Shown here one piece after another: positions 9,586-63,240 of a stretch of DNA of 64,000 nt (positions are counted from its first letter, which is position 1; every line of letters starts with the position of its first letter). The notes under the pieces were generated by a model. The model was given only the letters and a program-made list of their open reading frames with translations. It was not told the DNA's origin and made no database searches. Origin of the DNA: an uncultured Phycisphaerales bacterium (lineage in GTDB: Bacteria; Planctomycetota; Phycisphaerae; Tepidisphaerales; Tepidisphaeraceae). The position numbers and the translations under genes are program-made. The stretch covers positions 513,911 through 577,910 of the forward strand of contig CAWFRU010000004.1 in NCBI GenBank assembly GCA_963818385.1, written 5' to 3'.

Positions 9586-9608
9586 CACATCGGAACGTAA
9601 GGAATATC

Positions 9609-9764
9609 TCACCGCCCGCTTCGCTAGAGATCGCAGAGAGCGCTGAGGGAAATGGAAGAGGTTTCGCGCAGAGGCGCTGAGGCGCGGAGGGGGATTTGGG
9701 TTGAAAATATTTTTAATTTCTTTTTCTCCGCGCTCTCGGCGATCTCTAGCGCAGCGGGCGGTGA
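9609..9764. repeat. long imperfect inverted repeat (about 35-nt arms, about 86-nt spacer)
   Basis: The left arm tcaccgcccgcttcgctagagatcgcagagagcgc (9609..9643) pairs with the right arm gcgctctcggcgatctctagcgcagcgggcggtga (9730..9764). It lies in the spacer where the compositional regime changes. Confidence 0.8.
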
Positions 9765-9795
9765 AATCGGTCTTCGTTTCGGTCAAGATGCGTAG

Positions 9796-12479
9796 ATGAT
9801 TTCGCTGCCGATTGATGGGTATCTGGGGGAGATTGTCGATGCGCTGCGGGGCGCGAAATCGGTGGTGGTGGTGGCTGAGCCGGGGGCGGGGAAGACGACG
9901 CGGGTGGCGCCGGGGATTTTGCGGGGTGGGGTTCTTTCCCGCGAGCATCCGAATATCGTGATGCTTCAACCGCGGCGGGTTGCGGCGCGGGCGGCGGCGG
10001 CGCGGATTGCGCAGGAAAACGGGTGGGACGTCGGGCGGGAAGTGGGGTATCAGATACGGTTTGAAAAGCGGATCACGGCTCAGACCCGGCTGCGGGTTTT
10101 GACTGAGGGGGTGCTTACCCGGCAGATGTTGGACGATCCGTTTCTGGAGGGCGTGGGGGCGGTGATTTTGGATGAGTTTCATGAGCGGTCGCTGCATGTC
10201 GATCTGGCGATCGCGATGCTTCGGGAGATGCGGCAGACGGTTCGGCCGGACCTGCTGATCGTGGTGATGTCGGCGACGATGGACGCCGGGCCGGCAGCGA
10301 AATTTTGGGGGATTGCCCGATTATCGATGTGCCGGGTAGGACGTTTGGGGTGGAGATTGAGTATCGGGGGGGTGGTGGAGTTTCGGCCGTCGAGCGGGTG
10401 AGGGATGCGGTGGAAGAGGTTGTGGGTCGGAAGGAAAGCGCGGGGGATGTGCTGGTTTTTCTGCCTGGGGCACAGGAGATTCGGGGCGCAGCGCGAGCTG
10501 GCTGGTATTGGGCAGCGGCATGATCTGGCGGTGCTGCCGCTGTATGGGAGTTTGCCGGCTGAGGAGCAGATGACCGCGCTTCAGCCATCGAGCCGGCGGA
10601 AGATCATTCTGGCGACGAACATCGCGGAGACTTCGCTGACCATCGAGGGCGTGCGCTGGGTGATCGACGCGGGATTGGCGCGGGTGCCGATGTTTGACGT
10701 GCGACGGGGACTGGACCGGCTGGAGCTGAAACGGATCAGCAAGGCTTCGGCCACGCAGCGAGCGGGTGCGCGGGCCGGACCGCGCCGGGAAAATGTTTGC
10801 GGCTCTGGTCGGCGAAGGAGCAGGCGGGGCTCGAGGAATTTGAATTGCCGGAGATCCAGCGGGTGGATCTGTGCGGGGCGGTGCTGGATTTGCATGCCTG
10901 GGGGAAATCCGATCCGGGGGGGTTTGGATGGTTTGAAGCCCCCCCGCCGGAGGCGCTCGAACATGCGAGGAGTTTGCTGGGGATGCTGGGGGCGGTGGAT
11001 TCGCAGGGCGTAACGGAATTGGGTGGGCGGCTGATGAAATTGCCGGTGCATCCGCGGATTGGAAGGATGCTGTGCGAGGCGGCGGATCGGGGGTGCGCCG
11101 AGGAGGGGGCAATTCTGGCGGCGATGCTTTCGGAGGAGGTGAGGCAGGCGAAGAAGGGCGCGCCGGCGACCATTGGGGATAGCGATTTGCTGGTGATGAT
11201 GGATGGTTCGCAGGACCCTGACGTGCGGCGGGTGAGCGCGGAATTGCTGCGGATTGGGCGAAGATTGGGGGGATCGGCGCGGAGATCGCCGGATCGGGAG
11301 ACGCTTTTGAAGCTGCCGCTTTTTGGGTATCCGGATCGGGTTTGCCGGCGGAGGGAGCGAGATCCGTCGGCGGCGGTGATGGTGGGCGGAGGGGGTGTGA
11401 GGCTGGATCGGGAATCGGTGGTGCGCCAGGGGGAATTTTTTCTGGCGCTGGATGCGCGCAGCGACCCGCGAATGTCGAGCCGGGAGGCGGCGGTGCGGAT
11501 CGCGAGCGCGATCGAGCCGGGGTGGCTGGTGGAGATGTTTCCTCAGTCGATCGTTCGGGAGCAGGTTGCGGAGTTTGATCCTAAGCGCGAGGCGGTGGTT
11601 GGGCGAAGGATTGTGCGGTATCGCGACCTGGTTTTGTCGGAAGAAATGGATGCGGCGGTTAATCCGGCCGAAGCCGGGAAAAAGCTGGGTGAGGCGCTTG
11701 GGGCGCGTGCGGGAGAGTTTTTTGCGGCGGATAAGGGGGCGGCAAACATTCTCGGTCGGGTGGCGCTGCTGCGGCGGGCGATGCCGGAGCATGGCTGGCC
11801 GAAGTTCGACGATGCGCAGCTTGGGGAGATTTTCGCAGAGCTGTGCGCGGGAAAGCGGAGGGTGGAGGAGGTCCGCCGATCCGGGCTGGGGGCGGCGCTG
11901 GAGGGGCGGCTTCAATATCCGCTGGATCAGGTTCTTCGGCGTGAAGCGCCGGAGGCGCTGGAGGTTCCGAGCGGGAGCACGATTCGTTTGCAGTATCGCG
12001 GGGAGCAGTCGCCGATATTGGCGGTGCGATTGCAGGAGGTTTTCTCCTGGCAGGATACGCCGAGGGTTGCGGCGGGAAGAGTTGCGGTGGTTTTGCATTT
12101 GCTTGGACCTAATTTTCGGCCGGTGCAGATCACGGATGATCTGCGGAGCTTTTGGAAAACGATGTATTTTCAGGTTCGGAAAGACCTTAGAGTCAGATAT
12201 CCGAAACATTCCTGGCCGGATGATCCGCTTACCGCGAAGGCGGTTGCGAAGGGCTGCCGAAACACAAATGAATTCTTGCGCTCTGGCGCCTTGAGCGAAG
12301 CGAGCGGTTATAAGATTTTTAACCGCCAAGACGCCAAGAGTGCCAAGAAAAGACAACAGTTGGATTCATCCGGAGGCGCAATGGGTTTTCCAGGTTTGGC
12401 GGTAGGCGGTTTCCATGTCGCGGGTGAATTTCGGGAAATTCATGAGGGGGGAGGATTGGAATTTTGCGCGGAGAGTTGA
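9796..12479 (+). CDS. hrpB: ATP-dependent RNA helicase HrpB (DEAH box), three frameshifts, 3' end uncertain
   Basis: AEPGAGKTT (Walker A), DEFHERS and SATMD, then PIIDVPGRTFGVEIEY, LVFLPG..EI, VLPLYGSLPAEEQ, ILATNIAETSLTIEGV and a C-terminal YPKHSWPDDP. The frames change near 10308, 10490 and 10770. The last 60 or so codons of the open frame read through a repeat and the antisense of the next gene, so the true stop is probably near 12270. Confidence 0.85.
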
Positions 12480-14020
12480 GCGGAGATTTGTGAGGCGGGC
12501 GGTGTCGGCGGCGAGATTTGCGGCGATCTTCACGAAATCGTCAGGGGATTTGGCGATGAGGTCGGGGAGGCCGGTGTTTTGGAGGATGCTTGCACCGGCG
12601 CGGCCGGCGGCGGTGCGGCCGGGGAGGGTGATGACGGGGAGGCCCATCCAGAGGGCGTCGCAGGAGGTGGTGATGCCGTTGTAGGGGAGGGGGTCGAGGC
12701 AGATGTCGATGTGGTCGTAGGCGCGGAGATATTGGCGTCGGTCGCAGCGCGGGGCGAATTGGACGCGGTTGGAGGAGATGCCGTTAGATTCGAAAGTGGA
12801 GAGGATGCGGGCGCGGTGGGCGTTGGAGATGGCCTGGATGAGGATTTGGGAATCGGGGACGGCGCAAAGGACCTGGGACCAGAGCTTTAGCAGCGGGTCG
12901 TTGAGCTTGCAGGGATTGTTGAGGGAGCCGAAACAAATCGGTCCGGGCGGTGCGGGGTTGCGGGTGGTTCGGTGCTCATCGGGTCGTAGCAGATCCAGGT
13001 GCTGGAGAGATGGATCGATTGCTCGTTGTAATTTTCGTCTTGGGTAATCGAAGAACCCACGGCGGCGCGGCTCGACTGAGCTCGCCGAAGTCCGTGGGCG
13101 TTCGGGGAAAGAGGATCTAAGTAGGGATCCGTGATGCGGTAGTCTATGGCGTCGAGGCCTGAACCGCCGGGGTAGGCGAGCCAGGCGATCTGGATGGGGG
13201 CGGGTTTTTGGGCGAAGGCCAGGGGGCGATTGTTGGCCATGTGCATGGCGAGGTCGATAGCGATGTCGATGTGGGCGGCGCGGATTTTTGTACGAGTTGC
13301 TGGCGCGTGAAGCCGGCGACGTCGTGCCAGACGTGGGCGGCGTTTTTCAGGCGCTGGGTGACGGCGTCGGGGCGGTTACTGTCGCTAAAGCAGTGGATTT
13401 CGAAATTCTGGCGGTCGTGGGATTCGAGGAGGGGGAGGACGAAAAATGACTCGGCGTGCTTCCAGAAATAGGGGGAGACGTAGGCGATGCGAAGGGGACG
13501 ATCGGGGTCGCGATTATTTTCGTGGGGGCGGATGAGGGGCTTCAGCGGAGCGGCATGAAACTGATTCCAACGGCGCTGCTCGGCGAGAAGGGATTGGGGT
13601 GTGCTTCGGGGATCGAATTCCAGGGTGTAAACCATTCCGCTGTGAATGATGGGGTTGTGGGGATCGAGCTCGGCGGCCTGCTTGAACGCATCGACGGCGG
13701 GTTCGATCTGGCCGTCTTCCTTGAGAATGAGCCCGAGGGTGTTTCGGTAGGAGGCTTCGCGCGGGTTGAGCTGCGTCGCGGTTTGGGCGGAGGGGAGGGC
13801 TTCGTCGATGCGGCCGAGGTCGTAGAGGCAGAGGGCGAGAATGTGATGTGCGTCGGAGCAGTTCGAGTCGAGTGCGATGGCGCGGTGGGCGGCGGCGATG
13901 CCGTCTTCGGCGCGGGCGAGGTGGCGAAGAAGCCAGGCGCGATTGGCCCAACCCTGGGGCCACTGCGGACGGAGTTCGAGGAGCTGGTCGAGGGAGGTTA
14001 GGGCGTCGGCGTAGCGGTTT
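12366..14020 (-). CDS. TPR + GT41 (SPINDLY/O-GlcNAc-transferase-like) glycosyltransferase, module 1, 2 frameshifts
   Basis: TPR stretch ..YADALTSLDQLLELRPQWPQGW..LGRIDEAL.., then YTLEFDPRSTPQ..RIAYVSPYF..AESFF..LLESHD. A shift occurs at the T5 run 13285..13289. The sequence continues ..IQIAWLAYPGGSGLDAIDYRITDPYLDP.., shifts again near 12937, and ends ..ICLDPLPYNGITTSCDALWMGLPVITLPGRTAAGRAGASIL. Confidence 0.75.
13056..13098 (+). repeat. hairpin repeat family B, copy B1 (inside GT41 module 1, split by a 24-nt insert)
   Basis: cccacggcggcg [cggctcgactgagctcgccgaagt] ccgtggg. The insert adds LRRAQSSR in frame (..NAHG-LRRAQSSR-AAVG..). Confidence 0.8.
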
Positions 14021-15858
14021 TCATTGACGAGTTTGACGGTCAGGGCATGGTAATGTTCGGGATCGGCGGGACTCGGGTTGCACCAGACGGACCAGACGTT
14101 TCGATAGGCGGCTTCGATGTCGCGGGCGAATTTTTTTTGCGTTCATCATGGACGAGGATTCGATTCGGCCGCGGAGGGATTGGCGCAGGTCGGCGAGCCG
14201 CGGGGAGTCGGCGGCGAGGTTCGCGGCGATCTTCACGAATTCATCCGGGGTTTTGGCGATGAGGTCGGGGAGGCCGACGTTTTGGAGGATGCTTGCACCG
14301 GCGCGGCCGGCGGCGGTTTGGCCGAGGAGGGTGATGACAGGGACGCCCATCCAGAGGGCGTCGCAGGAGGTGGTGATGCCGTTATAAGGGAGGGGGTCGA
14401 GGCAGATGTCGATGCGGTCGTAGGCGCGGAGATATTTGGGGCGCGGGCAGCGGACGGCGAATTTAACGCGGTCGCCGGGGATTCCGCGGGATTCGAAGAA
14501 GGCGCGGATGCGGGCGCGGTGGGCGGCGGAGTTGGCCTGAAGGAATATCTGGGAATCGGGGACGGCGTGGAGGACTTTTGACCAGAGATCCAGCAAAGGG
14601 TCGTTGAGCTTGCAGGGGTTGTTCACGGAGCCGAAACGGATGGGGCCTGTAGGGCGCGGGGTTGCGGGGGGCTCGTCGCTCATGGGGTTGTAGCAGATCC
14701 AAGTGGTGAGGAGATGGATGGATTGCTCGTGGTAATTGTCGTCGTGGGTGATTGTGGGACCCACGGCGGCGCCGTGGGCGTTCGGGGAAAGAGGATCTAA
14801 GTAGGGATCCGTGATGCGGTAGTCGATGGCGTCGAGTCCGGAGCCCCCGGGGTAGGCTAACCAGGCGATCTGGATGGGGGCGGGTTTTTGGGCGATGGCT
14901 GGGGCGCGGTTATGGGCCATGTGCATGGCTAGGTCGATGAGGATGTCGATTCGATCGCCGCGGATTTTTTCGGCGAGCTGGTTGTGGGTGAGGGAGGCGG
15001 TTTCGTGCCAGGCGTGGGCGGATTTTCGGAGGCGGTCGGTGATCTCATCCGGTTCTTTGCAGTCGCTGTAGCAGTGGATTTCGACTTGGGCGGGGTCGTG
15101 GGATTCGAGGAGGGGGAGGACGAAGAATGTCTCGGCGTGCTGGCGGAAATAGGGGGAGACGTAGGCGATCCGCAGTCGGCGATTCGGGTCGCGGTCGTTT
15201 TCGTGGGGGCGGAATTCGATCTTGAGCGATTCCTTGAATCGCTGGTTCAGGAGGCGCTGATTCGCCAGGAGGGACTGGGGCGTGGAGCGCGGGTCGAATT
15301 CGAGGCTGTAGGCGCGGTTACTGAGGAAGACGGGGTGATTGGGTTCGAGCTGGAGGGATTTGTCCATTTCGGCGAGGGCGGCTTCGAGTTGGCCATCTTC
15401 TTTCAGGATGCGCCAAGGGTGTTGTGGGCGGCGCCGCTGGTGGGATTGAGCTCGACGGCGCGGCGGGCGGCGGGAAGGGCCTCGTCGATGTTGGCGAGGT
15501 CCATGAGGGTGACGGCAAGATAGTAGTGGGCTTCGAAAGCTTCGGGGGCGGAGGGATGGAGTTCGATGGCGCGGCGATAGGATTCGACGGCGCCCTTGGA
15601 ATCCGCGGCGGATTTTCGGGCGCGGGCGAGATTGATGTGAAAGCCGGGGGTGTTGGGCTGGAGGGTGATGGCTTTGCGGATCAGGTCGATGGCTTCAGAG
15701 TGTGCGCCTTTTTGGGCGCAGAGGACGCCGAGGAGGTGGAGGGCGTCGGGGGAATCGGGCGAGGTTGCGAGGGCCTGGCGGTAGAGACGTTCGGCCTCAC
15801 TGAAACGGCCGGCCTGATGGTGGGCCATGGCGGCGGTTAGTTGCTGGTGGAGGTTCAT
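14021..15858 (-). CDS. TPR + GT41-like glycosyltransferase, module 2, frameshift near 15412
   Basis: MNLHQQLTAAMAHHQAGRFSEAERLYRQAL.. (TPR, ORF 15403..15879) continues as ..ILKEDGQLEAALAEMDKSLQLEPNHP.. into ORF 14021..15367, which carries the same GT41 motifs as module 1. The stop at 14021 is reached only because of the T8 run at 14131..14138. Confidence 0.75.
14750..14768 (+). repeat. hairpin repeat family B, copy B2 (inside GT41 module 2)
   Basis: cccacggcggcgccgtggg followed by cgtt. It is read on the minus strand as ..NAHGAAVG... Confidence 0.9.
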
Positions 15859-18173
15859 TGGGCGATTCCCCCGATCCATATTTGCCGAAGGGCGGATTCA
15901 AAGTCGCGGGCGAATTGGAGGAAATCCATCAGGGGAGAAGGCGAAGGCGATCGCGCAGGGTGGACCGTAATTCTTTCAGACGGGCGCGATTATTGGCTAA
16001 TTCCCGGGCGATTTCGATGAATTGGTCTTCGCCGGGGGCGATGAGTTCGGGGAGGCCGACGTTGGCGAGGATGCTTTTTCCGGCCCTGCCGGCGGCGGTG
16101 CGGCCGGGGAGAGTGATGACGGGGACGCCCATCCAGAGGGCGTCGCAGGTGGTGGTGATTCCGTTGTAGGGGAGGGGATCGAGGCAGATATCGATCTGGT
16201 CGTAGAGGCGGAGATATTGGTCGCGGTTCAGGCGCGAGGCGAAGTGGAGGCGGGCGGAGGAGACGGCGGCGGAATCGAAGATGGCAGTGATCTTGTCGCG
16301 CTGCTCCTGGGAGAGGGATTGGATGACGAGGGTTGAATCGGGGACTGCGCTGAGGAGTTTGGCCCAGAGGCTGAGGGTGGGGTCGCTGAGTTTGCAGGGG
16401 TTGTTAAGGCAGCCGAAACGGATGGGGCCCGAGTTGCTCATTGGGGCGGCGGGGATGTCGGTGAGGGGGTTGTAGCAGGCCCAGGTGTGGGGGAGGAGGA
16501 TCGATTGCTCATGGTAATTTTCGTCTTTAGTAATCGAATTCCCCACGGCGGCGCCGTGGGCGTTTCGGGATTGCGGATCCAGGTACGGGTCGGTGATGCG
16601 GTAGTCGATGGTGTCGAGTCCGGAACCCCCCGGGTAGGCTAACCAGGCGATCTGGATGGGGGCGGTTTTTTGGACGAGGGTCAGGAGGCGGTTGTGGGAC
16701 ATGTGCATGGCGAGGTCGATGAGGATGTCGATGCGATCGGCGCGGATTTTTTCGGCGAGCTGGTTGTGGGAAAGGGCGGTGGTGATGTGCCATACGTTGG
16801 CGGTGCGCTTGAGGCGGTCGGTGATTTCGTCGGTGCGGATGGCGTCGCTGTAGCAGTGGATTTCGAAATTTTCGTGGTCGTGGGATTCCAGGAGGGGGAG
16901 GACGAAGAAGGATTCGGCGTGGCCGTGGAAATAGGGGGAGAGATATCCTATGCGCAGAGGACTGCGCTGCGCGAGAAAGGGGAGCAGTAGAGGGAGATGG
17001 GGAAACGCGGTGGAGTTCGTTCCATTTTCTTTGTTCGGCGAGGAGGGACTTTGCATCGGCGCGGGGGTCGAATTCTAGGGTGTAGATTTTGTTGCTGCGA
17101 TGGGTGGGGTTGGCTGGATCGAGTTCCAGGGCGCGATCGAGGGAGGCGATGGAGGCGGGGATGTCGCCGGCGTCTTTGAGGGCCCAGGCCAGGGTGGCGA
17201 GGGCTTCGGGGGAGCGGGGGTTGAGCTCGACGGCGCGGCGCGCGGGGGTGAGAGCGTCGTCGATGCGTTCGAGGATGAGGAGGGAGCCGGCGAGGTTGAT
17301 GTGGGCCTCGGGGAGGTTGGGATCGATGTCGATGGCGCGCTGGGCGGCAAGGGCGGCCTCATGGGGGCGGCCGGCATCGCGGAGGGTGGTGGCGCGGTTG
17401 ACCCAGGGGGTGGGCCAGTTGGGCTGGAGGGCGATGGCCTTGTCGAGGGCGACGAGGGCTTCGTCGAAACGCTTTCGGGCGGTGAGGGAGATAGAGAGGT
17501 TGTTGAGGATTTTGGGGGCGTTGGGCTGGAGGGTGAGGGCCTGATTGAAGCAGGTGATGGATTCGTCGATTCGGCCGAGCTCGCGGAGGGAATTTCCGCG
17601 GGCGGCGGCGGCGTCGGGGAAATGGGGCTGGAGGGAGAGGGCTTTGTCGGCGCAGTCGAGAGCTTCGGTGAATTTTTTCTGCTCGTTGAGGATGTGGGCG
17701 AGGTTGGACCAGGCGATGACGAAATCGGGGCGGATTTTTAAGACGGCTCGGCAGCAGTCGGCGGCATCGTTAAAAAGGCGGCGTTCGAAATAGAGGCCGC
17801 CGAGGTTGGAGAGGGCTTCGACGTAGTCGGGGCGGAGCGCTATGGCGCGTCGATAGCAGGCGATGGATTCGTCGAATTGGCCGGCGGCGTGATGGATGTT
17901 GGCGAGGCTGGCGTGGAAGGTGGGAGCATTGGGATGGAGGTGGATGGCGCGGCGGACTAATTCGATGGCCTGGGGGTGATGACCGGTTTGGGAGAAGAGG
18001 AGGCCGAGGAGGTGAAGGGCGTCGGGGTTGTTGGGATCGGCGGCGAGGATTTTCTGGTAGATGGATTGGGCGTCGCGGAGGCGGCCGGCCTGGTGGTGCT
18101 GGAGAGCGAGGGCGAGGGCCTGGGGGAGGGTGAAGTTTGATTCTGTGGGGTTGGACATGGGCGTTTTTTTCAT
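15855..18173 (-). CDS. TPR + GT41-like glycosyltransferase, module 3, 2 frameshifts
   Basis: About 10 TPRs in ORF 16527..18173, a shift near 16965 into ORF 15929..17056 (GT41 domain), then a shift near 15930 to the C-terminus SPLMDFLQFARDFESALRQIW. The stop TGA at 15855..15857 overlaps the module 2 ATG (15858..15856) as ATGA. Confidence 0.75.
16542..16560 (+). repeat. hairpin repeat family B, copy B3 (inside GT41 module 3)
   Basis: cccacggcggcgccgtggg followed by cgttt. It is read as ..NAHGAAVG... Confidence 0.9.
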
Positions 18174-18194
18174 CGCTTAGAATAATTGAAATAC

Positions 18195-18213
18195 CCCACC
18201 GCGGCGCGGTGGG
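18195..18213 (+). repeat. hairpin repeat family B, copy B4 (compensatory stem variant)
   Basis: cccaccgcggcgcggtggg followed by cgttcc. Relative to the consensus, both stem halves changed (GG to CG on the left, CC to CG on the right), which keeps the palindrome perfect. Confidence 0.85.
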
Positions 18214-18228
18214 CGTTCCGATATATAT

Positions 18229-19602: not shown

Positions 19603-19623
19603 GGGTTGGGTCTCCGGTGGATT

Positions 19624-19645
19624 CCGCCGGTGGGGACACCGGCGG
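19624..19645 (+). repeat. hairpin repeat family A, copy A1
   Basis: ccgccggtggggacaccggcgg, in the divergent spacer between the DUF3987-like and esterase genes. Confidence 0.9.
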
Positions 19646-19835
19646 CACTTGGGTTTTTATACGGGACTCTATATATGGGTCCAAAGGGTGCACGTTTTGG
19701 ACCTATTTTTGGAACGTGCGGTGATTTTTTTTTGCGGGAGTGTGTTTTTTTGGTTTAAAAGAAGTAGATGAGAAGGCTTTTTTCGGTTGCGGTTCTTGAT
19801 GGGGTGGGGAAGAACTTTGCGTTTGTGCGAAGGGG

Positions 19836-23921: not shown

Positions 23922-23935
23922 AATACGGGGGAATT

Positions 23936-54071: not shown

Positions 54072-54141
54072 TTGCGAGTTGCGAGTTGCGAGCAAAGGCA
54101 AATGCATTTAACTCGCAACGCGCAACTTGCAACTCGCAACT
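54070..54141. terminator. long palindrome P2 (gttgcgag octamers) filling the whole spacer between convergent stop codons; candidate bidirectional terminator
   Basis: The left arm (gttgcgag x3, 54071..54092) and the right arm ctcgcaacgcgcaacttgcaactcgcaac (54112..54140) are separated by the loop caaaggcaaaTGCATTTaa. The flanking stop codons are at 54069..54071 (+) and 54140..54142 (-). Confidence 0.6.
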
Positions 54142-54637
54142 AGTTTTTGGAGACGGTGTCTACGTCGATGCGGTAGACGCTTTGGATGTGGCCTGCGGAG
54201 GATTGGACGCCTACGTGGAGGGTGCCGATGACGTTTACGAAATCGCCGGTGGAGTCGGTGACGTTTTTGTTGGGGGGGACCGTGGCCTGGATGAAATGCT
54301 GGACTTTGGGGGGGCCGTTGAAGCAGCAGTTGGAGATGGAGTAAACGAGCGTGAATACGCGGACCTGTCCGTCGTCGGCGGCGTAGGGGTCGTACATCTG
54401 GCCGATGAGGAGGACTTTTTTTCCGTCGAGCTGTCGGTAGCGCTGGGGGATGTCGTTGTCGGTGCCGTTGTCCTGGTCCATCTCAAAGCTGGAGAGGGCC
54501 TTGAGGTCGACGACGAGGAGATTGCCCTGGTGGGTGATGCCACCGGTGAGCCAGATGTCGGCATACTCGAAAATGGGGTAGCCGAAGAGGAAGATTGCGG
54601 TGGCGATGAGGGCGAGGGTTCGCCAGGAGGGGATCAT
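54140..54637 (-). CDS. DUF3299-family protein (ZrgD-like)
   Basis: 165-aa intact ORF with an N-terminal TM helix. ..KKVLLIGQMYDPY...VFTLVYSISNCCFNGPPKVQHFI is the DUF3299 pattern. Its ATG overlaps the permease stop as ATGA at 54634..54637. Confidence 0.6.
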   Translation of the reverse strand: MIPSWRTLALIATAIFLFGYPIFEYADIWLTGGITHQGNLLVVDLKALSSFEMDQDNGTDNDIPQRYRQLDGKKVLLIGQMYDPYAADDGQVRVFTLVYSISNCCFNGPPKVQHFIQATVPPNKNVTDSTGDFVNVIGTLHVGVQSSAGHIQSVYRIDVDTVSKN

Positions 54638-56087
54638 GTGGCTACCAGGTTGGTGGCGACGGGGGTGCGGTAGGCCTTGAGGGCGGGGACGAGGCCGGCG
54701 ATGGTGGCGAGGATGACGACGGCGATGACGTAATAAACTTCGTAGAGATATTCGACGGGGTTAAAGGCGAGGACTTCTCCGTAGTTTTGGAGCATGTACC
54801 AGGCGCCGGCGGCATTGACGGCGTGGCCGAGCGAAGAGGCCGAGGATGGAGCCGATGAGGGCGACGATGCCGGCTTCCAGGCAGATGAGAGTCAGAATGG
54901 TTTTGCGGGTGGCGCCAGGGCGCGGAGGATGGCGATTTCTTTCAGGCGGGCGGAGACGGAGTTGTAGATGCTGACGAGGATTCCGACGGCGGCGACGATG
55001 GTCACCAGCGAGCAGATGATGAGGAGGACGAGGCGGGTGGGCTTGAGGAAGGTGTCGAAGAACCCGCGCATGACGGAGGCGGGGTTGAAGGCCATGACGT
55101 CGGTGCCGTTGTTGAGGGCGTATTCGAGTTGCTGCTCGGTGTCGCCGCCGCGGGATTCGACCAGGATCGCGGAAACGGCGCGGATTTCGGGGGGGATTTT
55201 GAGATGGAAGGTTCCGTCCTTGGTGTTGAGGTCGTAATTGCTGTAGTGCGGAGATTCCGCTCTGCGTCCGGGGTGTGATCCATGGTTTCATCGGAATCGG
55301 GATCGAAGGCGGGGTGGCCACGCCGTTGCGGATGGCGGCTTGGGCGATGAGGCCGGCGCCGTGCTCGGCGATGGTGTAGAAGCTTTCGAGGGGGATATAG
55401 ACGCAGCGATCGATGGCGGTGTGGGTGGGGGCGAGAACGCCGACGATGGTCCAGATCCTGCATGTGAATATCAGGTGGGCGGCCGGGGACGGCGATGCCG
55501 TGGGTGGCCTGGAAGTCGCTGCCGATGGTTTTGCCGGTGAGGCGGGGGATTTCGCTGCCGACGACGGCTTCGAATTTATTATAGGCGAAGAGGTCTTCCC
55601 TGGGCGATCTGGAGCTTTTTGCCGGGGCGGTAGTCCAGCCAGTCTTCGTCGGGGAGCTGATTGCCGTTTTCGTCGTAGCCGAAAAAGATGGGTGGCGTGC
55701 CGACGATGCGGTAATGGCCGTTGAGTGTGTCGCCGACGCACGGTGGGGACGGCGACCTTGACGTATTTGAAATAATTGTCCGGGAGGATAGGGGACGCCC
55801 TTGGGGAGATGGGGATTTAGCAGGCGGGTGTACTGGTCGTAGGGGATGTTGCCGGGGCTGACGTCGAGGTGATAGATGGTGTTGAGGACCAGTTGCAAGG
55901 TGGAGCCTTTTTTCCCGATGATGGCGTCGTAGCCGTAATCGTTTTGGCCGAAGAGGGATTCGCTCTCGCGGCCGAGGACCATGATGGCGATGGCGAGGGC
56001 GACGCCGAGCATGACGGAGAGAGTGGTGAGCCAGGTGGAGAGGGCCCGCTGGCGCATTTGTTTGAGGACGAGTTGGAAATAATTCAT
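54634..56087 (-). pseudogene. FtsX/MacB-type ABC transporter permease, at least 6 frame changes
   Basis: Family-like segments are scattered over all three reverse frames. In order they are [33 protein letters not shown].., ..DNYFKYVKVAVPTV, GDTLNGHYRIVGTPPIFFGYDENG.., EDLFAYNKFEAVVGSEIPRLTG.., IWTIVGVLAPTHTAIDRCVYIPLESF.., ..IRAVSAILVESRGG..FLKPTRLVLLIICSLVTIVAAVGILVSIYNSVSARLKEIAILRAL, GATRKTILTLICLEAGIVALIGS and ..AFNPVEYLYEVYYVIAVVILATIAGLVPALKAYRTPVATNL. Confidence 0.7.
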
Positions 56088-56104
56088 GGTTGGTAACCCT
56101 TTTT

Positions 56105-56832
56105 TTAAGCGCGACGGCGATGGCGGTGGGCGTACATGGCCTGGTTGATTTCGGTCAGAGTGAGGACGCGCGGGAGCTGGCGGGCGATGTTGAGGTCGTG
56201 GCTGACCAGCAGCAGGGAGGATGCCGACTTCGGAGCAGAGACTGGCGGATCAGGTCCAGCACTTGCTGGGCGTTGGTGGCGTCGAGGGCGCCGGTGGGCT
56301 CATCGGCGAGGACGAGCTTGGGGCGATTGGCCAGAGCGCGGGCGACGGCGACGCGCTGCTGCTGGCCGACGGAGAGTTTTTGGGGGCTGATAGTTCAGGC
56401 GGTCGGCTGAGGCCGACTTCGTCGAGGAGATGCTCGGCCCAGTTTCGGTCGTGGGCGCGGCCGGTGAAGGTCATGCCGAGCAGGACGTTTTCCAGGGCGG
56501 TGAATCCGGGGAGAAGGTGGTGGGTTTGGAAGATGTAGCCGATGTTTCGGCCGCGGAAAATGTCGCGCTCGGCTTCGGAGAGGAGGGTGAGATCGATGGA
56601 CGTCGGGGGAGTCGGGGTTGGCGGGGTCGTAGCCGAAGACGACGTTGCCGCTGTCGGGGGTGAGGATTCCGGCGATCATGTGGAGGAGGGTGGTTTTTCC
56701 GGAGCCGCTGGTGCCGATGAGGGCGACCTGCTCGCGCGTCGGCGAGATAAAGTTCGGGGATGTCGATGACGGGGACGCGGTGCCGTCCGGGGCGAGGTAG
56801 GTTTTTTTTAGTTTATGGATGAGGAGGCCCAT
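56105..56832 (-). pseudogene. ABC transporter ATP-binding protein, about 6 frame changes
   Basis: Walker A IGTSGSGKTT, Q-loop ..IGYIFQTHHLLPGFTALENV, signature [15 protein letters not shown], Walker [13 protein letters not shown], and H-loop LLLVSHDL each lie in different reverse frames. The joins are near 56775, 56737, 56600, 56405, 56385 and 56245. Confidence 0.7.
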
Positions 56833-56915
56833 TGGAGGTCCTTGATTGATGATGGTGCGCGGCAATTTTTGCGCCGGGGTGCGGATTCAGTTGGAAAAGA
56901 TTGGATGGGGGAGGA

Positions 56916-57332
56916 TCAGAGCGTAGGCGGGGCGCGGGATTGTTCGGTGATCAGGGTTGTTGGCGTTGGTGATGACGGCGGATCGAGGGTGATACGGCCA
57001 GTTATCGACAGGGGAGAAATCGTGGGAGGGGCGGAGGAGTCAATCGTTGCGGCGGAGTGGATAGCGATGCAGATGGAGCAGGTGGCGGGGTTATGGATGG
57101 GGAAACGCTGGGGGAGTTTTCTCAAGGGGGAGTTGGCGGGGAGACGCGGAGCGGGAATGGCGTCTAGTTCGCGCTGAACCTCGGCGGCGTGGGCGCGGTC
57201 GAAGGGGCCGGTGCCAATCAAGAAGAAGATGGTGAGGAGGAATAGAGCGGGGTAACGAAGCACGCTTTGATATTGTTGTGAGGGGGAGGGGCGGAGGTCA
57301 AGGGGAGATAAGAGGTGGAAGTTGGGGTTCAA
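56916..57332 (-). CDS. hypothetical protein with N-terminal TM/signal anchor
   Basis: 138-aa ORF upstream of the ABC genes and overlapping the upstream gene's stop by 4 nt. No family recognised. Confidence 0.3.
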   Translation of the reverse strand: MNPNFHLLSPLDLRPSPSQQYQSVLRYPALFLLTIFFLIGTGPFDRAHAAEVQRELDAIPAPRLPANSPLRKLPQRFPIHNPATCSICIAIHSAATIDSSAPPTISPLSITGRITLDPPSSPTPTTLITEQSRAPPTL

Positions 57333-59607
57333 CCTCCGGTGTTGGTGTTGGTGGGTTTTCCGGCGCTTTCGGCGTAGAGGATCATGTGTTCCATGAGGGT
57401 GGTGGCGGAGTCGGGGTCGTAGCCGATGATTCCGTCGACGGGTTCACCGACCAGGCCGGCGGTGATGTCTTCGGGGCTGTAGAAGACAGCGATCCGACGG
57501 TTGATTTTGATGCCGCGGATTCGGGGGACGGTGAGATCGTCGGAGTTGAGGACGTGATGGGCGAAGGTGCGGTAGGCGACCTGGTCGATCTTGCTGCCGA
57601 TCTCGGTGTAGAGGATGTGGCCGGGGCGGAGGGGCTGGTCGAGTTGAGTCGCCTGGTCGAAGAAAGTGGTTTGGAGCTGGGGGAGGATGTCGTCGTTGAA
57701 GGTTTGGGAGCCACCAGCGGCGTCGATGATGAGGGTGCCGCCGTTTTCGACGAAGGAGTGGAGCTGAATCCACTGGTCGATGTTGAGCTTGACGTGTCCT
57801 GAGCCGGTGAGGACGGCGATTTTATAGTCGGTCATGTCGGTGGACTGGTCGAGCTTGAGGGGATCGACTTCGATGTCGAGCTGGTCGCGGTTGTGCATGA
57901 TGGCGGCCATGCGCTGCCAGGCGCCGGGTTCGGGGTCCCACATGCCGTCGTAGCGGATGCGGGCGATTTTCATGGAGCGGGTGGCCTGGATGCGGGAGCT
58001 GGGCTGGACGATGAAGGAGTCGCCTTTTTCGCGGATGTTTTGTTTATCGGAGGCGTAGAGGAGAAGGTCGGCGCCGAGCTCGAAGAGTTCTTCCTTGGAA
58101 GAGGTGAGTTGGGCTTGCCAGGCGCGGGAGGCGTCGGCTTTGGGGAGGAGGATCATGAGTTCGCGCACGCCGTTGGAGAGGCCCAGGACGGTGGGCGGGT
58201 TGGTCCAGTCGGAGGCGAGGAACTGCTCATTTTCGAGGATGCAGTGATCGATGGGGAGCTCGCGGAATTCGCCGATCTGGGGGAAGAGCTCGGCGGCGAG
58301 TTGCTTGACGGAAGCGGAGAAAGCGGTGCTGCCGCAGTCGGCGTTGAAGAGGACCATGCCCCCCTGCTGGATGAAGGTTTTGATTTTTTGCTTGTCGGAG
58401 TCGGCGAGGGTGAGGGCTTTGTCGCCGGTGATAAAGAGGATGGAGGCGTCGTGGAGGTCGGCGGGGTCGCCGCTGAGATTGACGACCTGCCAGTTGAGGA
58501 GGCGGTCGAGCTCGACCTGTTTTCCCATCCAGCGGTTGAAGTTGGCGAGGTCGCGCGGCGCTGGTTCCAGTCGGCCTGGACGGGGTGGTTGTCGGCAGAG
58601 TCTGGGTCGGGCGCGGTGAAATATTCGAGCTTGTTCATGCCAATGGGGGCGCGGCCTCGGGTGAGGAAGAGGATGGCGAAGGAGGTGTCGGCGACATTGG
58701 AATTCCAGGAGCCGTCGGGTTTTTGGATGCGGACAAGATAGTCTGCGCCCTGGGCGTACCAATCGGTGGTGCCGAAGAATTTTCGTCCGCAGGCGGCGCC
58801 GAGTTCTTCGATGGAGTAGAGGGTGTAATAGCGGTAGGCGGATTTGAAAACGTCAGCGTAGTGCTCGCCGAGCCAACTTAGGCCGCGGTCGATGTCGGGG
58901 TCGGAGGAGTTGCCTTTGCAGGAGGGGCTGGTGCCCATGGCGAGAGCGTCCTGGGCGATGAAGAGGGTTGCGACACCGGCGGCGGTCATTGAAATGGTCT
59001 GGGCGAAGTCTTTATTGCGGCTGTAGTTCCAGCTACCGCCCTGCTGCTGGGCGGCGCGCAGCCGTCGCTGACGGTTTGCCAATAGGAGGTGGGGATTTCC
59101 ATTCCTTCTTCGGAGCAGGCCCAGACACCGAGAGGGCCGTACTGGCTGACGGCGTGGTCGGGGGGGGTCATGGGGGTGGCGAGATCGGCGTCGTACATGC
59201 CGTCCTGGGAGATGCCTTTCTGGAGGGTTTGGCCATCTTGGCGGAGGGCGGCTTTGATCTGATCGTTGGGCAGGAGCATTCGCCAGACCTGGCAGCGCAT
59301 ACCGAGGGTGAAGACGCTGGTGAAATTGGTGGATTGGAGATAGGTGATGGTAGCGGCCATTTTGGGGTTGTCGGGAGGTTCGCCGGCGACGAGGAGGGCG
59401 TAGGCGGCGGTGGAGGTGATGGCGCCGGGGGCGTTTTGGTCGGGAAAAGCGCGTTTCATTTTTTTGGAGACTTCCCAGTGCCCATCTTTCTGGTGGGCGA
59501 GAATATATTGCTCGGCCTTGTCGATGGCGTTTTGGACTTCGCCGGGGGTGGCGGCGCGTGCGAGAGGCGCAGATGAGGGCCAGGATGCAGAGGAATGCGG
59601 GACGCAT
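57329..59607 (-). CDS. secreted prenyltransferase/squalene-oxidase-repeat + DUF4159 protein, 3 frameshifts
   Basis: Starts with signal peptide MRPAFLCILALICAS. A shift near 59545 leads to ..GEVQNAIDKAEQYILAHQKDGHW.. (terpenoid-cyclase-like repeats, ORF 58986..59459). A shift near 59065 leads to ..GGSWNYSRNKDF..KPDGSWNS... A shift near 58565 leads to the DUF4159-like C-terminus (..ILFITGDKALTL..IQQGGMVLFNADCG.., ..VLTGSGHVKL..GGTLIIDAAGG). Confidence 0.6.
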
Positions 59608-59609
59608 TT

Positions 59610-60758
59610 TCAGTTTCCTCGCCAAAGGAGCAGCGGTCGCGAAGTAAAGAGCGCGGCGGCGGTTTTTGCGTCGATGGCTACGCCATTGAGGGATAGTCCG
59701 GCTTCGGAGCTGCTTGCCTGTCCGGTCGGCAAATTTGAGCGGGATGACAGCGTGTCGAAGAGGCTGACGTTTTTCTGATATTTGACGACGGACCAGGAGG
59801 TGAGTCCGGCGGTTTTGGCGGCGTAGTCGCAGGCGGCGTCGGGATAGCCGATCTGGTCGATGAGGCCGCGGGAGAGCGCGTCGGCGGCGATAAAGGCTTT
59901 GCCGCTGAAGACGTCATTCTGGATGTCGGTGAGTTTACCTTTGCGGCCGGTGAGGACGACGTGCTTGAATTGGGTGAAGATGCCGTCAACCAGGCCCTGG
60001 AGATAGGTTTCGTCGCGGGGGTCGGGGGGCTGGAACATGGAGCCGGCGTTTTTGAAGGAATGGCCGGTGGTGGTGGCGGTGAGGGTTGTTTCGTAGGCGC
60101 CGTATTTGTTAATGGTCTGGGCGAGGTTGAAGCGGGGGAAGAGGACGCCGATGTTTCCGGTGAGACAGCCGGGTTCGGCGAAGAGATAGTCACCGGCGGC
60201 GGAGACGTAGTAGCCGCCGCTGGTGGCCATGCCGCGCATGGCGATGATGACGGGGATTTTGTGGGTGGTCTTGAAGAGGTCGAGGCGGTGGTACATTTCG
60301 TCGGAAGCGGTGGCGGAGCCGCCTGGAGTGTTGACCGCGACGACGAGGGCTTTGACGGAGGCGTCTTTATCGACTTCCCTGAGGACGGTGTCGAAGGCGT
60401 CGGCGGAGGCGTCGTCGATGAGGCCGTCGATGGGGACAACCGCGACTTTGTCGGATCCGCCGGAGGTGAGGACGGTTTGCTTTACGTCGGAGAGGGTTAG
60501 GGCGAACTGGAAGAGATTTACGATGATGGAGATTCCGAGGGCGAGGAAAAGGAGGATAATGAGGGCCCACTTGGCGGTGCAGCGGCGGTGAGGGGGCATG
60601 GGGGAAGGCGGAGGGGGCGGAAACATCATGGGAGGCATTGGGATTCCGGGCGGGGGATAGCCGGGGGGCGTTCCCGCGGGCATTCCGGGGGACGGGGGCA
60701 TGGAGAAGAGACCGCGAGGATCAACGGGGGCCTGACCTGGCGGTAGGGGTTGTGTCAT
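59610..60758 (-). CDS. sppA: signal peptide peptidase SppA (S49, 36K type)
   Basis: Pro-rich N-terminus plus a TM helix, KVAVVPIDGLI, VNTPGGSATASDEMY, and MATSGGYYVSAAGDYLFAEPGCLTGNIGV. Intact 382 aa. Confidence 0.85.
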   Translation of the reverse strand: MTQPLPPGQAPVDPRGLFSMPPSPGMPAGTPPGYPPPGIPMPPMMFPPPPPSPMPPHRRCTAKWALIILLFLALGISIIVNLFQFALTLSDVKQTVLTSGGSDKVAVVPIDGLIDDASADAFDTVLREVDKDASVKALVVAVNTPGGSATASDEMYHRLDLFKTTHKIPVIIAMRGMATSGGYYVSAAGDYLFAEPGCLTGNIGVLFPRFNLAQTINKYGAYETTLTATTTGHSFKNAGSMFQPPDPRDETYLQGLVDGIFTQFKHVVLTGRKGKLTDIQNDVFSGKAFIAADALSRGLIDQIGYPDAACDYAAKTAGLTSWSVVKYQKNVSLFDTLSSRSNLPTGQASSSEAGLSLNGVAIDAKTAAALFTSRPLLLWRGN

Positions 60759-60787
60759 ATCGTTATAAATTTTAACACATGAAAGAG

Positions 60788-60867
60788 GAGTTGCGAGTTA
60801 CGAGTTGCGCGTTGCGAGTGAAATCCATTGCATTTTCACGCAACTCGCAACTCGTAACTCGCAACTT
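60788..60867. repeat. long palindrome P3 (gttgcgag-type octamers)
   Basis: The arms gagttgcgagttacgagttgcgcgttgcgag and gcaactcgcaactcgtaactcgcaactt enclose the loop tgaaatccatTGCATTTtcac. It lies between the pilT stop and the sppA start. Confidence 0.85.
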
Positions 60868-60870
60868 CCT

Positions 60871-61991
60871 TCAAGGTTTGGAGCGTGGGGTGGGGGTGGC
60901 GAGTTTGGGGATGGTTTCACCGACGCCTTTTGCGCCGATGCCGCGGACGGCCATTTCCAGGGCTTCGCGGTTGGTGGCGTGGCGGATGGCTTCGCTGTGG
61001 GTAATCAGCTCCTGCTTGAAAAGCTGGAGGAGGTTCTGGTCGAAGGTTTGCTGGCCGTCGCCGGCGGTTTTCATGTAGTCGCTGAGTTCGAGGGCTCGGC
61101 CCTCGAGAATGTATTTTTGAGGAACGGGGCCACCGCGGAGAATCTCAGTCGCGGGGCGGCGCTTGCCGTCGCGGGCGGCGACGAGGCGCTGGGAGATGAT
61201 GGCCTCGAGATTGCCCGCAAGCTGGGTGAGGAGGAGCTTGTGCTCGGACGGGGGGAACATCGCGATAATGCGTTCGATGGTCTGCGGGGCGCTGGCGGAG
61301 TGAACGGTGGAGAAGACCTGGTGGCCGGTGTCGGCAGCGCGAAGGGCGATGCGCAGGGTGTCCATGTCGCGAAGCTCGCCGACGAGAACGACGTCGGGGT
61401 CCTGCGCAGGGATTGGCGAAGGGCCTGCTCGAAGCTCGGCGTGTCCATGCCGACTTCAAGCTGGGCGATCAGTGAGAGCTTGGGCGTGTGGAGGTATTCG
61501 ACGGGATCTTCGATGCTGATGATCTTGCTGGCCCGGGTGCTGTTGATGAGCTCGATCATCGAGGCAAGGGTGGTGGATTTTCCCGAGCCGGTGGTGCCCG
61601 TCACAAGGGTGAGTCCGCGTCCGGAAAGGGCGATGTCGTTGACGACGGGGGGAAGATGGAGTTCGGGAATGGAGGGGATTTTGGATTTGATGAGGCGCAT
61701 GGTCATGCCGGGGCTGCCGAGGACGCGATAGCCGGAGCATCGGAAGCGACAGAGGCCGGGGGCGGCGTAGGAAAAGTCAAGGCCGACGGTGAGGCGTTCG
61801 TCGATTTTGTCGCGCACCTGCGCGGGGGCGATGGTGGCGATAAAGTTACGGATGTCGTCGTCGGTCATGACCGGTTGATCGACGGTGTGGAGGGTTCCCT
61901 GGATGCGGAGCTTTGGGGCAAGGCCCGCCTGGAGGTGGATGTCCGATGCGTCGCGATCGGCGGCGAAGTGCATCAGCATTTGGAAGTCCAT
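60871..61991 (-). CDS. pilT: type IV pilus twitching-motility ATPase PilT, one frameshift near 61405
   Basis: ASDIHL, GLTLVTGTTGSGKSTTLA (Walker A), and IISIEDPVEY. After ..ALRQSLR the sequence (Q)DPDVVLVGELRDMDT..TGHQVFSTVHS continues in ORF 60871..61365. Confidence 0.88.
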
Positions 61992-62084
61992 GTGCGGGGT
62001 AGTTTACGTTGCCGGGGCGTGGGATCGCAACAAAATCCCGTGTTGTTGCAACGGGACGGGAGGGACTGTACACAGACCGGCGAT

Positions 62085-62987
62085 ATGAACACACGCATTC
62101 GCAAAGCGGTTATCCCCGCGGCTGGTCTGGGCACCCGGCATTTTCCCGCGTCGCACGCGGTGAAGAAGGAGCTGTTTCCGATCGTGGGGCGGGATGGGAT
62201 CGCCCGGGCGCTGATCCACTATCACCTGATCGAACTGCTGGCGGCGGGAATGGAGGAGGTTTGCATTATCGTGCAGCCGGGGGACGACAAGGCGATACGG
62301 GATTACTTCGCGGGACCGGACGCGGAGTATTTGAAGCGGCTGGAGAAATATCCGGCGCTGGCGGCGGAGGCGCGGGAGATGCGGGGGATGAATGAGCGGA
62401 TTTCGTTTGCGGTTCAGCATGAACAGGAGGGGTATGGACATGCCGTGTATCAGACCAGATCGTTCGCGGGGGATGAGATGGTGCTGCTGTGTCTGGGGGA
62501 TCATTTGTTTCGAGGGGAGCCAAGGTCGCCTTACCGGCGGCTGGTGAAGGCGGCGCCGCTGTGCGGGGGGAAGAGCGTTTCGGCGGTGAATCGGATCGGG
62601 CCGAGGGAATTGAAAGGGTTTGGAACGATCGCGGGGAGGCGGCGGAGGGAGAATCCTGGGCTGATTGATGTGAGCCTGATTATTGAGAAGCCGGATGTGG
62701 CGACGGCTCGGGAGAAGCTGCGGGTGGATGGTCTTGAAGAGAATGTTTTTTTGGGGTGGTTTGGGATGCACGCGCTGGCGCCTTCGATCTATGTGGTGCT
62801 GGAGGAGATGATCCGGGGTGAGGTGCGAGATAACGGGGAGTTTCAGCTTACGCGGGCGCAGGAGATTCAGAGACAGCGGCAGGGGTATGTGGCGATGGAA
62901 GTGAGCGATTGCGAGCGGTTTGATTTTGGAATTCCGGATGATTTTGTGCATAGTTTGAATGCGTTCAGGTCAAATGCAGGCGGTTAA
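62085..62987 (+). CDS. galU: UTP--glucose-1-phosphate uridylyltransferase-like sugar nucleotidyltransferase
   Basis: Starts at MNTRIRKAVIPAAGLGTRHFPASHAVKKELFPIV (ATG 62085), the GalU N-terminal signature. The ORF-track start at 61488 is antisense overlap with pilT. Confidence 0.7.
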   Translation: MNTRIRKAVIPAAGLGTRHFPASHAVKKELFPIVGRDGIARALIHYHLIELLAAGMEEVCIIVQPGDDKAIRDYFAGPDAEYLKRLEKYPALAAEAREMRGMNERISFAVQHEQEGYGHAVYQTRSFAGDEMVLLCLGDHLFRGEPRSPYRRLVKAAPLCGGKSVSAVNRIGPRELKGFGTIAGRRRRENPGLIDVSLIIEKPDVATAREKLRVDGLEENVFLGWFGMHALAPSIYVVLEEMIRGEVRDNGEFQLTRAQEIQRQRQGYVAMEVSDCERFDFGIPDDFVHSLNAFRSNAGG

Positions 62988-63240
62988 AGGCGCGAGTTGA
63001 CAGAGCGGACGGCAACCGATTTCTGTAGCGGGGCACCATTTAAGACAATTATCTGCAATAACTTATAGTCAATAAGGCGGCTTGGGCTCATTTTTTGGTT
63101 GACTTTCCGACAAAGAAGATTAAATTTGCGACATTGCAGCAAACGGTTGCTGTAGGCGGTCTTAAGTGCGGTTGGATCGCTGGAGAACAAATCTTGGGGT
63201 TCCGAACCCCGCCGGCAGGCAAATTCGGAGGAGGTCAGAA

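Follow-up and report, generated by a model that had tools for sequence, protein, structure and literature searches.

The cause of GC skew in bacterial chromosomes has long been debated, with deamination of exposed strands, unequal replication errors and selection as the proposed sources. Strand-specific codon and amino-acid usage was reportedly described in Borrelia burgdorferi, Treponema, Chlamydia and endosymbionts by McInerney in 1998 and, separately, by Lafay and by Rocha in 1999. In ordinary genomes the effect amounts to a few percent, and its spectrum is hard to read. SkewDB gives bacterial GC skew as 'typically around 2.5%' (PMC8941118). In a survey based on a composition-bias score, the mean for Planctomycetes is 0.023 and the two highest phylum means are 0.071 for Firmicutes and 0.100 for Fusobacteria, with strong bias accompanying small, low-GC genomes (PMC4613354). 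The subject here is a 64,000-nucleotide (nt) stretch from an uncultured Phycisphaerales bacterium of the family Tepidisphaeraceae (hereafter the window; contig CAWFRU010000004.1, positions 513,911 to 577,910), most of which shows a far stronger excess of G over C on one DNA strand.

Several described systems bear on such an asymmetry. Eukaryotic REV1 inserts C opposite abasic sites, and APOBEC-linked C>G changes occur on the lagging-strand template. The dgt mutator of Escherichia coli is said to favour GC>CG and AT>GC changes, a result attributed to Gawel and colleagues in 2008. The mutator phenotype of the dgt deletion has been ascribed to changes in dGTP (PMC4014421). In mismatch-repair-defective E. 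coli, transitions are 2.4 times commoner when the lagging-strand template carries A or C, and A:T transversions are likewise commoner when it carries the pyrimidine. The authors explain this by more frequent misinsertion of C during lagging-strand synthesis, and raised dCTP (ndk) leads to more C misinsertion opposite A and T (bioRxiv 10.1101/346874). The highest genome-wide GC skew found in the literature is 0.74, in the 21-kb mitochondrial DNA (mtDNA) of the red alga Galdieria sulphuraria (PMC4316638).

The window is probably ordinary native chromosome of an uncultured Tepidisphaeraceae soil clade that is under extreme, replication-strand-specific mutation pressure toward G. Replication-associated strand asymmetry is itself already known, and the window represents an extreme, lineage-specific variant of it with an unusual mutational signature. 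What is new is the magnitude, its occurrence in a large, high-GC, free-living genome, where surveyed bias is weakest (PMC4613354), and the spectrum of changes to G.

Strand asymmetry in the window

GC skew computed in 2-kb windows is 0.00–0.12 in the first 10 kb and then 0.14–0.55 from about 9.6 kb onward. Positions 9600–63000, delimited in the preliminary description as a 53-kb block, contain 22052 G and 10046 C on the plus strand, which corresponds to a GC skew of +0.374, an AT skew of -0.104 and a G+C content of 0.601. Genes were modelled as open reading frames (ORFs) with a coding-type GC1/GC2/GC3 pattern and confirmed by Pfam. At fourfold-degenerate sites pooled over the plus-strand genes of the block, the frequency of G is.748 and that of C.077 (own-strand skew +0.81); in minus-strand genes, read on their own strand, C reaches.769 and G only.061 (skew -0.85). 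The plus strand of the block is about 75–80% G at silent sites in either gene orientation.

In each of the 36 gene segments, the sign of the skew tracks the DNA strand rather than the coding strand. Plus-strand fourfold skew lies between +0.51 and +0.97 in all correctly framed segments of the block, the exception being the transposase of an insertion sequence (IS; -0.18). The excess of G by strand includes non-coding as well as silent sites, which is the defining feature of strand compositional asymmetry: un-annotated DNA inside the block has a skew of +0.33. Codon positions 1 and 2 are also shifted, and amino-acid content follows, with Val and Gly about twofold more frequent in plus-strand genes and His and Pro about twofold more frequent in minus-strand genes. 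Purines make up 81–88% of fourfold sites on the G-rich strand. No motif dependence is seen; G reaches 0.70–0.82 in nearly all neighbour-base contexts, and there is no TpC-type pattern. A motif-specific enzyme is unlikely because the excess of G holds with nearly every neighbouring base.

These results bear out the preliminary description in its central claim, that silent-site G and C are set by the strand and not by gene orientation. Its hand counts of third-position G and C over the first 60 codons are exact for hrpB (39/5), MATE (28/9), fbaB (1/43) and the M24 peptidase (15/25), as is its count of 33 G and 6 C at 20041–20100, and the check that it proposed, by sliding windows and by strand, finds minus-strand genes opposite in sign to plus-strand genes. 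Less of its argument from gene orientation stands. The share on the C-rich strand, given there as two thirds of the genes, is about 60% by gene count and 52% by coding length (20.1 kb on the plus strand and 21.5 kb on the minus strand). With coding length divided 48:52, and with a mean of 0.50 of genes on the leading strand in Planctomycetes (PMC4613354, Table 2), the proposed paradox is weak, and gene orientation in the block is no meaningful anomaly.

The composition-bias score of the block, (|G-C|+|T-A|)/length, is 0.266, whereas Planctomycetes average 0.023 and no phylum averages more than 0.10 (PMC4613354). The magnitude is thus far beyond published bacterial values, as had been suspected, and in the literature searched nothing comparable is described for Planctomycetes or Tepidisphaeraceae. 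As in the skew of Borrelia burgdorferi and similar bacteria, the strand sets silent G and C and some amino acids, the G and T excesses share a strand, and the uniform span is long. The window differs in the size of the effect (a score of 0.266, where phylum means do not exceed 0.10, and a fourfold skew of 0.8–0.9), in the setting, which is a free-living, high-GC genome of at least 5.0 Mb, and in the dominance of changes to G, transversions included. Organelle genomes such as vertebrate mtDNA and that of Galdieria reach a comparable silent-site magnitude, attributed to asymmetric replication, and in Galdieria the G-rich strand is likewise pyrimidine-poor (PMC4316638). Those replicons are, however, 15–20 kb long, replicate by strand displacement or unidirectionally and carry their genes mostly on one strand, whereas the bacterial chromosome to which the window belongs spans several megabases and carries genes in both orientations.

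Scale and lineage distribution

A Dxr-based scan of species-representative genomes found only metagenome-assembled genomes (MAGs) of Tepidisphaeraceae/Phycisphaerales (Planctomycetota). The window comes from a contig of 2,068,962 bp. The sister genome is a 5.0-Mb contig of MAG ERZ25039518 (CAVWLP010000002.1), collinear with the window at 89–94% DNA identity. A third lineage is represented by JGI metagenome contigs that are 92–95% identical to the window and 89–92% identical to the sister. Four JGI contigs from four samples (L033–L036) and a Logan contig (L038) have a raw skew magnitude of 0.29–0.39 and a fourfold skew magnitude of 0.68–0.95, the gene of a PEP-CTERM protein excepted. In the sister, the dxr locus has a raw skew of +0.37, and at the orthologous left edge the skew steps from about 0 to +0.34 and then climbs to +0.59.

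The asymmetry in the window occupies 9796..64000 (GC skew 0.374, fourfold about ±0.8 by strand) and is likewise present at the sister loci L008, L024, L028 and L037. It reaches past the end of the window, since the collinear sister genome stays skewed there. The gene that the window end cuts, for a PEP-CTERM protein (63242..64000, plus strand; read from the sequence), is more weakly skewed. In L037/L038, the fourfold skew of its orthologue is +0.40 and that of the genes that come next +0.70 to +0.81; in the sister, extreme skew persists for at least 7 kb past it. The PEP-CTERM gene is a local dip rather than the end of the region.

Distant loci of the sister were reached through identical copies of an IS110 transposase and represent sampled points rather than a continuous curve. 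At 1.04 Mb, native genes including ruvC, ruvA, ruvB, rpsR and der have fourfold skews of -0.6 to -0.95 in both orientations, and the sign on the record strand equals that at 2.95–3.02 Mb of the same 5.0-Mb contig. The sign is therefore constant over a replichore-sized span at the sampled sister loci. On a second sister contig, genes at -0.7 to -1.0 are interspersed with genes that are barely skewed; GC at fourfold sites (GC4) is lower in about half of the latter. IS genes in the sister have fourfold skews of only -0.13 to -0.30. At one further locus (L030; contig_5192, 338630–359829, about 0.34 Mb), the fourfold sign changes with reduced amplitude among convergent genes. This change fits a terminus with G-rich leading strands, although it could alternatively mark an inversion breakpoint. 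The same locus also holds a cluster of mobile elements (IS110, a group II intron reverse transcriptase and IS3).

Because the sister shows the skew at the same loci, beyond the right end of the window and 2 Mb away, the skew is a replichore-scale feature and not a 53-kb island. The block first delimited does begin abruptly, at about 9.6–9.8 kb, but it has no true end at 63 kb, and its discreteness is contradicted by the same sign and magnitude at 1.04 Mb and 2.95–3.02 Mb of the sister contig. The step up in skew falls, by a fine profile, in the spacer between the genes for an M29 aminopeptidase and hrpB (9586..9795). This spacer contains a palindromic insertion of about 160 nt (9609–9770) with a 33-bp stem and a predicted DNA hairpin of dG -55.6 kcal/mol (z -7.9). 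The palindrome occurs in the window and the JGI lineage, where three contigs end inside it, and is missing in the sister. As a cause of the step it is ruled out, since the sister (L024) has the step without the palindrome.

Collinear relatives whose orthologous proteins are 75–89% identical have a raw skew magnitude of at most 0.16 and a strand-set fourfold skew of about 0–0.45. Plus-strand fourfold skew is -0.49 in plus-strand and -0.41 in minus-strand genes of L001, -0.28 and -0.29 in L023, about -0.2 in L007, about +0.2 in L006 and +0.15 to +0.33 in L040, the closest relative. The clade that unites the window with the JGI lineage and the sister has roughly doubled a family-wide strand bias at silent sites, to near saturation, and is taken to have amplified a family trait because the relatives already have a weaker strand-set skew. 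As a separate observation, the strand-set skew of 0.2–0.45 in ordinary Tepidisphaeraceae itself looks high for bacteria and for a phylum of weak bias. With relatives whose skew is two- to many-fold weaker, comparative genomics of replication, repair and nucleotide-pool genes could pinpoint the change. Methods that assume strand symmetry, in codon usage, amino-acid composition, detection of horizontal gene transfer, binning and phylogenetics, will misbehave on these genomes.

Substitution spectrum and competing explanations

The window and the sister differ at 15% of 2,631 fourfold sites. On the plus strand, 142 differences are G/A and 29 are of the strand-complementary type C/T; 125 are G/T, compared with 7 C/A; and 77 are G/C, which is self-complementary. 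Rates were estimated by maximum likelihood (ML) from 1,864 fourfold sites with a 12-rate, strand-specific, non-reversible model on the tree ((window, JGI), sister). An earlier polarisation by parsimony, with the sister as outgroup, gave a net loss of G and was rejected as the known bias of parsimony under skewed composition. The stationary composition under the ML model (A.054, C.053, G.804, T.088) matches that observed. On the G-rich strand, in units of the window branch, the rates are.37 for A>G,.18 for C>G and.11 for T>G;.07 for T>C,.05 for C>T and about 0 for A>C; and.022 for G>A,.018 for G>T and.009 for G>C.

On the G-rich strand, the three changes to G (A>G, T>G and C>G) are 5-fold to more than 20-fold faster than the complementary changes. 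Under the stationary model, C>G/G>C is 20 (bootstrap 95% interval 6.6–30) and A>G/T>C is 5.3 (3.5–14.6), with 8.2 and 4.8, respectively, when root frequencies are free. T>G/A>C is very large under both models, A>C being close to 0. By comparison, C>T/G>A is 2.3 (0.4–5.7; 1.8 with a free root) and G>T/C>A is about 1 (1.1 with a free root). Summed over bases, N>G/N>C is 8.6 (6.1–17.5) under the stationary model. A strand-symmetric model is rejected (likelihood-ratio test 42, df 6, p 2e-7), and the asymmetry is therefore an ongoing process and not a relic. About 1,900 silent sites thus suffice here for a significant 12-rate spectrum. From the strand-set bias, its replichore scale and the N>G spectrum we infer that a replication-linked mutational origin, as suspected in the preliminary description, is the best reading.

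Classical C>T deamination of an exposed strand, amplified, for instance, through loss of ung or, as in mitochondria, through prolonged exposure of single strands, is an unlikely main source. It would account for the excess of G over C and of T over A on the same strand (AT skew -0.10), and both C>T, at about twice G>A, and A>G, at about five times T>C, are deamination-type changes of mtDNA. However, GC4 in the extreme clade is not lowered (0.83–0.87, on par with relatives), and pyrimidines are down to 12–19% of fourfold sites on the G-rich strand, a level that transitions cannot reach. Asymmetry is greatest for the transversions C>G and T>G, whereas the interval for C>T/G>A includes 1. A C>T-dominated spectrum with lowered GC, the mark of classical deamination, is not what is found (C>T/G>A 2.3 against C>G/G>C 20), and this process is at most a minor contributor. 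The same figures fail to support what the preliminary description had implied, deamination or missing mutY, mutM or ung: the asymmetry is about 2-fold for C>T and about 1-fold for G>T/C>A, compared with 5-fold to more than 20-fold for N>G.

In the extreme clade, A, T and C on one strand give way to G far faster than the complementary changes take place, and G is rarely lost. This strand-specific pressure has probably driven silent sites to about 80% G and pulled non-coding DNA and amino-acid content along. It probably acts at the scale of the replichore, with recent DNA (IS elements, integrated elements, variable islands) not yet skewed. The G-rich strand would be the lagging-strand template, with the sequence of the leading strand, and hence of the usual polarity. 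A single kind of event, the insertion of C opposite template A, T or C during synthesis of the complementary strand, may unify the changes; the spectrum points to this event rather than to C>T. Candidate causes include an altered balance of dCTP and dGTP, inefficient proofreading or mismatch repair of one strand, and lesion or abasic-site bypass that inserts C. A heritable change in the copying of one strand, either through a lagging-strand polymerase or bypass that puts C opposite any non-G or damaged base of the template or through a gross dCTP/dGTP pool shift combined with strand-unequal correction, is offered as a tentative explanation. If it is correct, the clade would have the most strand-asymmetric cellular chromosome known and would be a natural experiment in which replication misinsertion, rather than cytosine deamination, is the main source of GC skew.

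The direction of every measured asymmetry agrees with that in mismatch-repair-defective or ndk E. coli. The size differs, at about 1.7–2.4-fold there and 5-fold to more than 20-fold here, and the E. coli values are mutations whereas those of the window are substitutions; in addition, C>G is no major class in mismatch-repair-defective E. coli. Insertion of C of the REV1 type would resemble the window in that any damaged base on the exposed strand becomes G while G is unchanged, which yields the N>G pattern. Unlike the APOBEC/REV1 system, the window has no TpC-type motif dependence.

Several observations weigh against replication-strand-specific pressure as the whole explanation. The substitution rates come from only about 300 non-G sites, and the ratios depend on the model (20 or 8 for C>G/G>C). 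The replication link and the identity of the leading strand rest on indirect evidence, namely the sign change at 0.34 Mb in the sister, with its convergent genes, and on the directions of the asymmetries. Some high-GC4 genes at the loci L027 and L030 are weakly skewed. In the dxr/M29 region, collinear genes of L001, L023 and L007 have the opposite strand-set skew, for which the direction of replication must have changed; that it did so in a single region of one lineage is the simpler reading. In all three lineages, extreme skew is lacking from the native M29 gene and from 386 nt upstream of it, with no excess of C>G, and a purely replichore-wide pressure needs extra assumptions for M29, such as codon selection or an imported allele.

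A rival reading is a reversed polarity, in which the leading strand became C-rich in the clade while the direction of replication stayed as in the relatives. The opposite sign in L001, L023 and L007 is consistent with such a reversal, as is the fact that the C-rich strand carries 60–80% of the genes in the window, L029 and L037, with rpsR, ruvCAB and der among them. The phylum, however, has no gene-orientation bias from which to argue. The convergent genes of L030 lie mostly on the G-rich strand on both sides of the sign change, and the direction of all substitution asymmetries is that seen on the lagging-strand template in E. coli. The extreme clade has the same sign as L040, its closest relative, at the uvrA-ruv locus, and polarity is therefore taken not to be reversed genome-wide; a genome-wide reversal is mostly rejected on this ground. 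Overall, reversed polarity is improbable.

Selection rather than mutation, acting either on codons or, strand-specifically, on the G-richness of DNA (through polar motifs or structure), is very unlikely as the source of the asymmetry. The bias is equal at fourfold sites of both gene orientations and extends to non-coding DNA and amino-acid content, opposite codon choices on opposite strands cannot be translational selection, and the lack of motif dependence speaks against selected motifs. That selection can modulate skew is suggested by the M29 aminopeptidase gene (8467..9585, plus strand; Pfam), which is weakly skewed and resists the pressure. In the relatives it is the most C-preferring gene of its neighbourhood, with the highest GC4. 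Its fourfold skew is +0.25 to +0.34 in the three lineages, compared with -0.45 to -0.49 in the relatives. Relatives about 84% identical in M29 (L021–L023) keep the order M29-hrpB-TPR/GT41, which marks the gene as native. Per site, C>G is about equal to G>C (0.08 and 0.06), and the three-lineage tree is star-like; the non-coding DNA upstream (386 nt) has a skew of -0.06. Codon selection may account for part of the weak skew, and an imported allele or a true local edge may be alternative readings. The idea that M29 is recently imported DNA, dated by a 'skew clock', is weakened by the lack of a current C>G excess. Skew could in principle date foreign DNA, since recent arrivals lack it, although the attempt with M29 gave no conclusive date.

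A still less probable explanation is a horizontally acquired 53-kb island or integrated replicon with its own composition, or one replicated unidirectionally or by a rolling circle. The sharp left edge beside a tRNA-Val gene and mobile DNA speaks for it, as does the precedent of Galdieria mtDNA, which shows that extreme skew can arise from unidirectional replication (PMC4316638). The tRNA-Val gene (8029..8102, minus strand; ARAGORN, Rfam) forms, together with its 3' side (7970–8102), an integration hot spot: DNA homology to L020, L025 and L026 begins at 7970 and that to L024 at 8081, and the three lineages have three unrelated DNAs to its left. The window has its peptidase, IclR and SDR genes there; the JGI lineage carries an element encoding two integrases and TraG; and the element of the sister encodes a TrwC relaxase, ParA, a resolvase and ParE. 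Mobile DNA (IS, integrase/TraG, TrwC) is, however, the unskewed part. The skewed region contains housekeeping genes (mdh, fbaB, lpxD, dxr, rseP and clpX), shares its gene order through the edge (M29-hrpB-TPR/GT41) with non-skewed relatives and extends beyond 64 kb; the sister shows the skew again 2 Mb away and on a further contig. The hallmarks of a genomic island, namely mobility genes, atypical composition and absence from relatives, do not characterize the skewed region. The apparent edge of the block is explained under strand-specific mutation pressure because recently arrived DNA has not yet acquired the skew.

Two kinds of unskewed DNA fit such recent arrival, not yet reshaped. One is the variable left flank (1..7969), with genes for the M24 peptidase, an RraA-like protein, IclR, MlrC/M81 and SDR. 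Its composition is ordinary, with a GC skew of 0.037, a score of 0.026, plus-strand fourfold skew of +0.12 to +0.41 and lower GC3, and no member of its RraA cluster is found in the sister genome. The other is an IS5-family insertion (37092..37951, minus strand) whose transposase (37109..37909; DDE_Tnp_1 and DUF4096) has a plus-strand fourfold skew of -0.18. Bounded by terminal inverted repeats of 23 nt and a (C)TAG duplication, it is missing from the sister (L008), where the empty site is intact; the insertion is recent.

An artefact of sequencing or assembly, such as systematic Nanopore miscalls at modified bases, is hardly credible. Both large genomes are long-read MAGs with gene-splitting indel errors. 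In the window, indels of 1–2 nt split hrpB (~10300–10800), glpK (35273), rseP (40435), a CarboxypepD-domain gene (45587) and the TPR-GT41 genes (12.4–18.2 kb). The sister MAG is similarly split in dxr, uvrA and hrpB, with at least 8 frame changes in uvrA, all conserved motifs of which are kept; hrpB is fragmented in both long-read genomes. The JGI contigs have intact copies of dxr and of glpK, rseP and the CarboxypepD-domain gene, and the splits in the last three are therefore errors of long-read assembly. A symmetric miscall, however, is unable to yield a bias on one strand. Skew also varies by codon position, from about 0.8 at fourfold sites to about 0 at second positions of plus-strand genes, and the proteins are conserved. 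The independently assembled JGI contigs from four samples and the Logan contig are equally skewed, with intact genes. The possibility that uvrA, hrpB, glpK and rseP are pseudogenes, signifying a loss of repair, is mostly rejected, with glpK and rseP intact in the JGI contigs and the uvrA motifs kept. Transcription-associated asymmetry has nothing specific in its favour and is scarcely conceivable when the sign is set by the DNA strand in every gene segment.

Genes and other features of the window

Housekeeping and envelope genes make up the block. They include hrpB, three TPR-GT41 paralogues, a clpX-like gene, mdh, a MATE transporter gene, fbaB, lpxD, glpK, a Kdo hydroxylase gene, dxr, rseP, and htrA-like and galU-like genes. 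The minus-strand gene mdh (26052..26987; Ldh_1_N/C domains) has a gene-strand fourfold skew of -0.97 and uses C-ending codons. On the same strand, fbaB (30165..31229), encoding a class I fructose-bisphosphate aldolase of the DeoC/LacD family, has a gene-strand fourfold skew of -0.96. The plus-strand gene dxr (38412..39728; DXP reductoisomerase domains) has a fourfold skew of +0.79 and uses G-ending codons. A SASA-family esterase gene (19836..21833, plus strand; Pfam) lies in the most strongly skewed stretch, with a raw skew of about 0.5 and a fourfold skew of +0.92.

Three tandem paralogues that combine TPR with GT41 (O-GlcNAc-transferase-like) occupy 12400–18173, and relatives have one gene at that position. 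Between tRNA-Val and M29 lies a small conserved ORF of 66 amino acids (8203–8403, plus strand) that is called in all three lineages and lacks the G-skew; no family match is on record for it.

An intergenic repeat of about 135 nt is conserved in the window at 21925–22060, 36970–37093 and 52178–52310, always in one orientation relative to the G-rich strand. Further copies lie in the sister loci L008 (2190–2251 with 3719–3795, and 7696–7826) and L028 (19555–19690, minus strand). The repeat has no family in Rfam and shows little covariation, and its core, probed against metagenome contigs, gave no exact match. The IS5-family element of the window and an IS110 element of the sister each sit in or beside a copy of this repeat.

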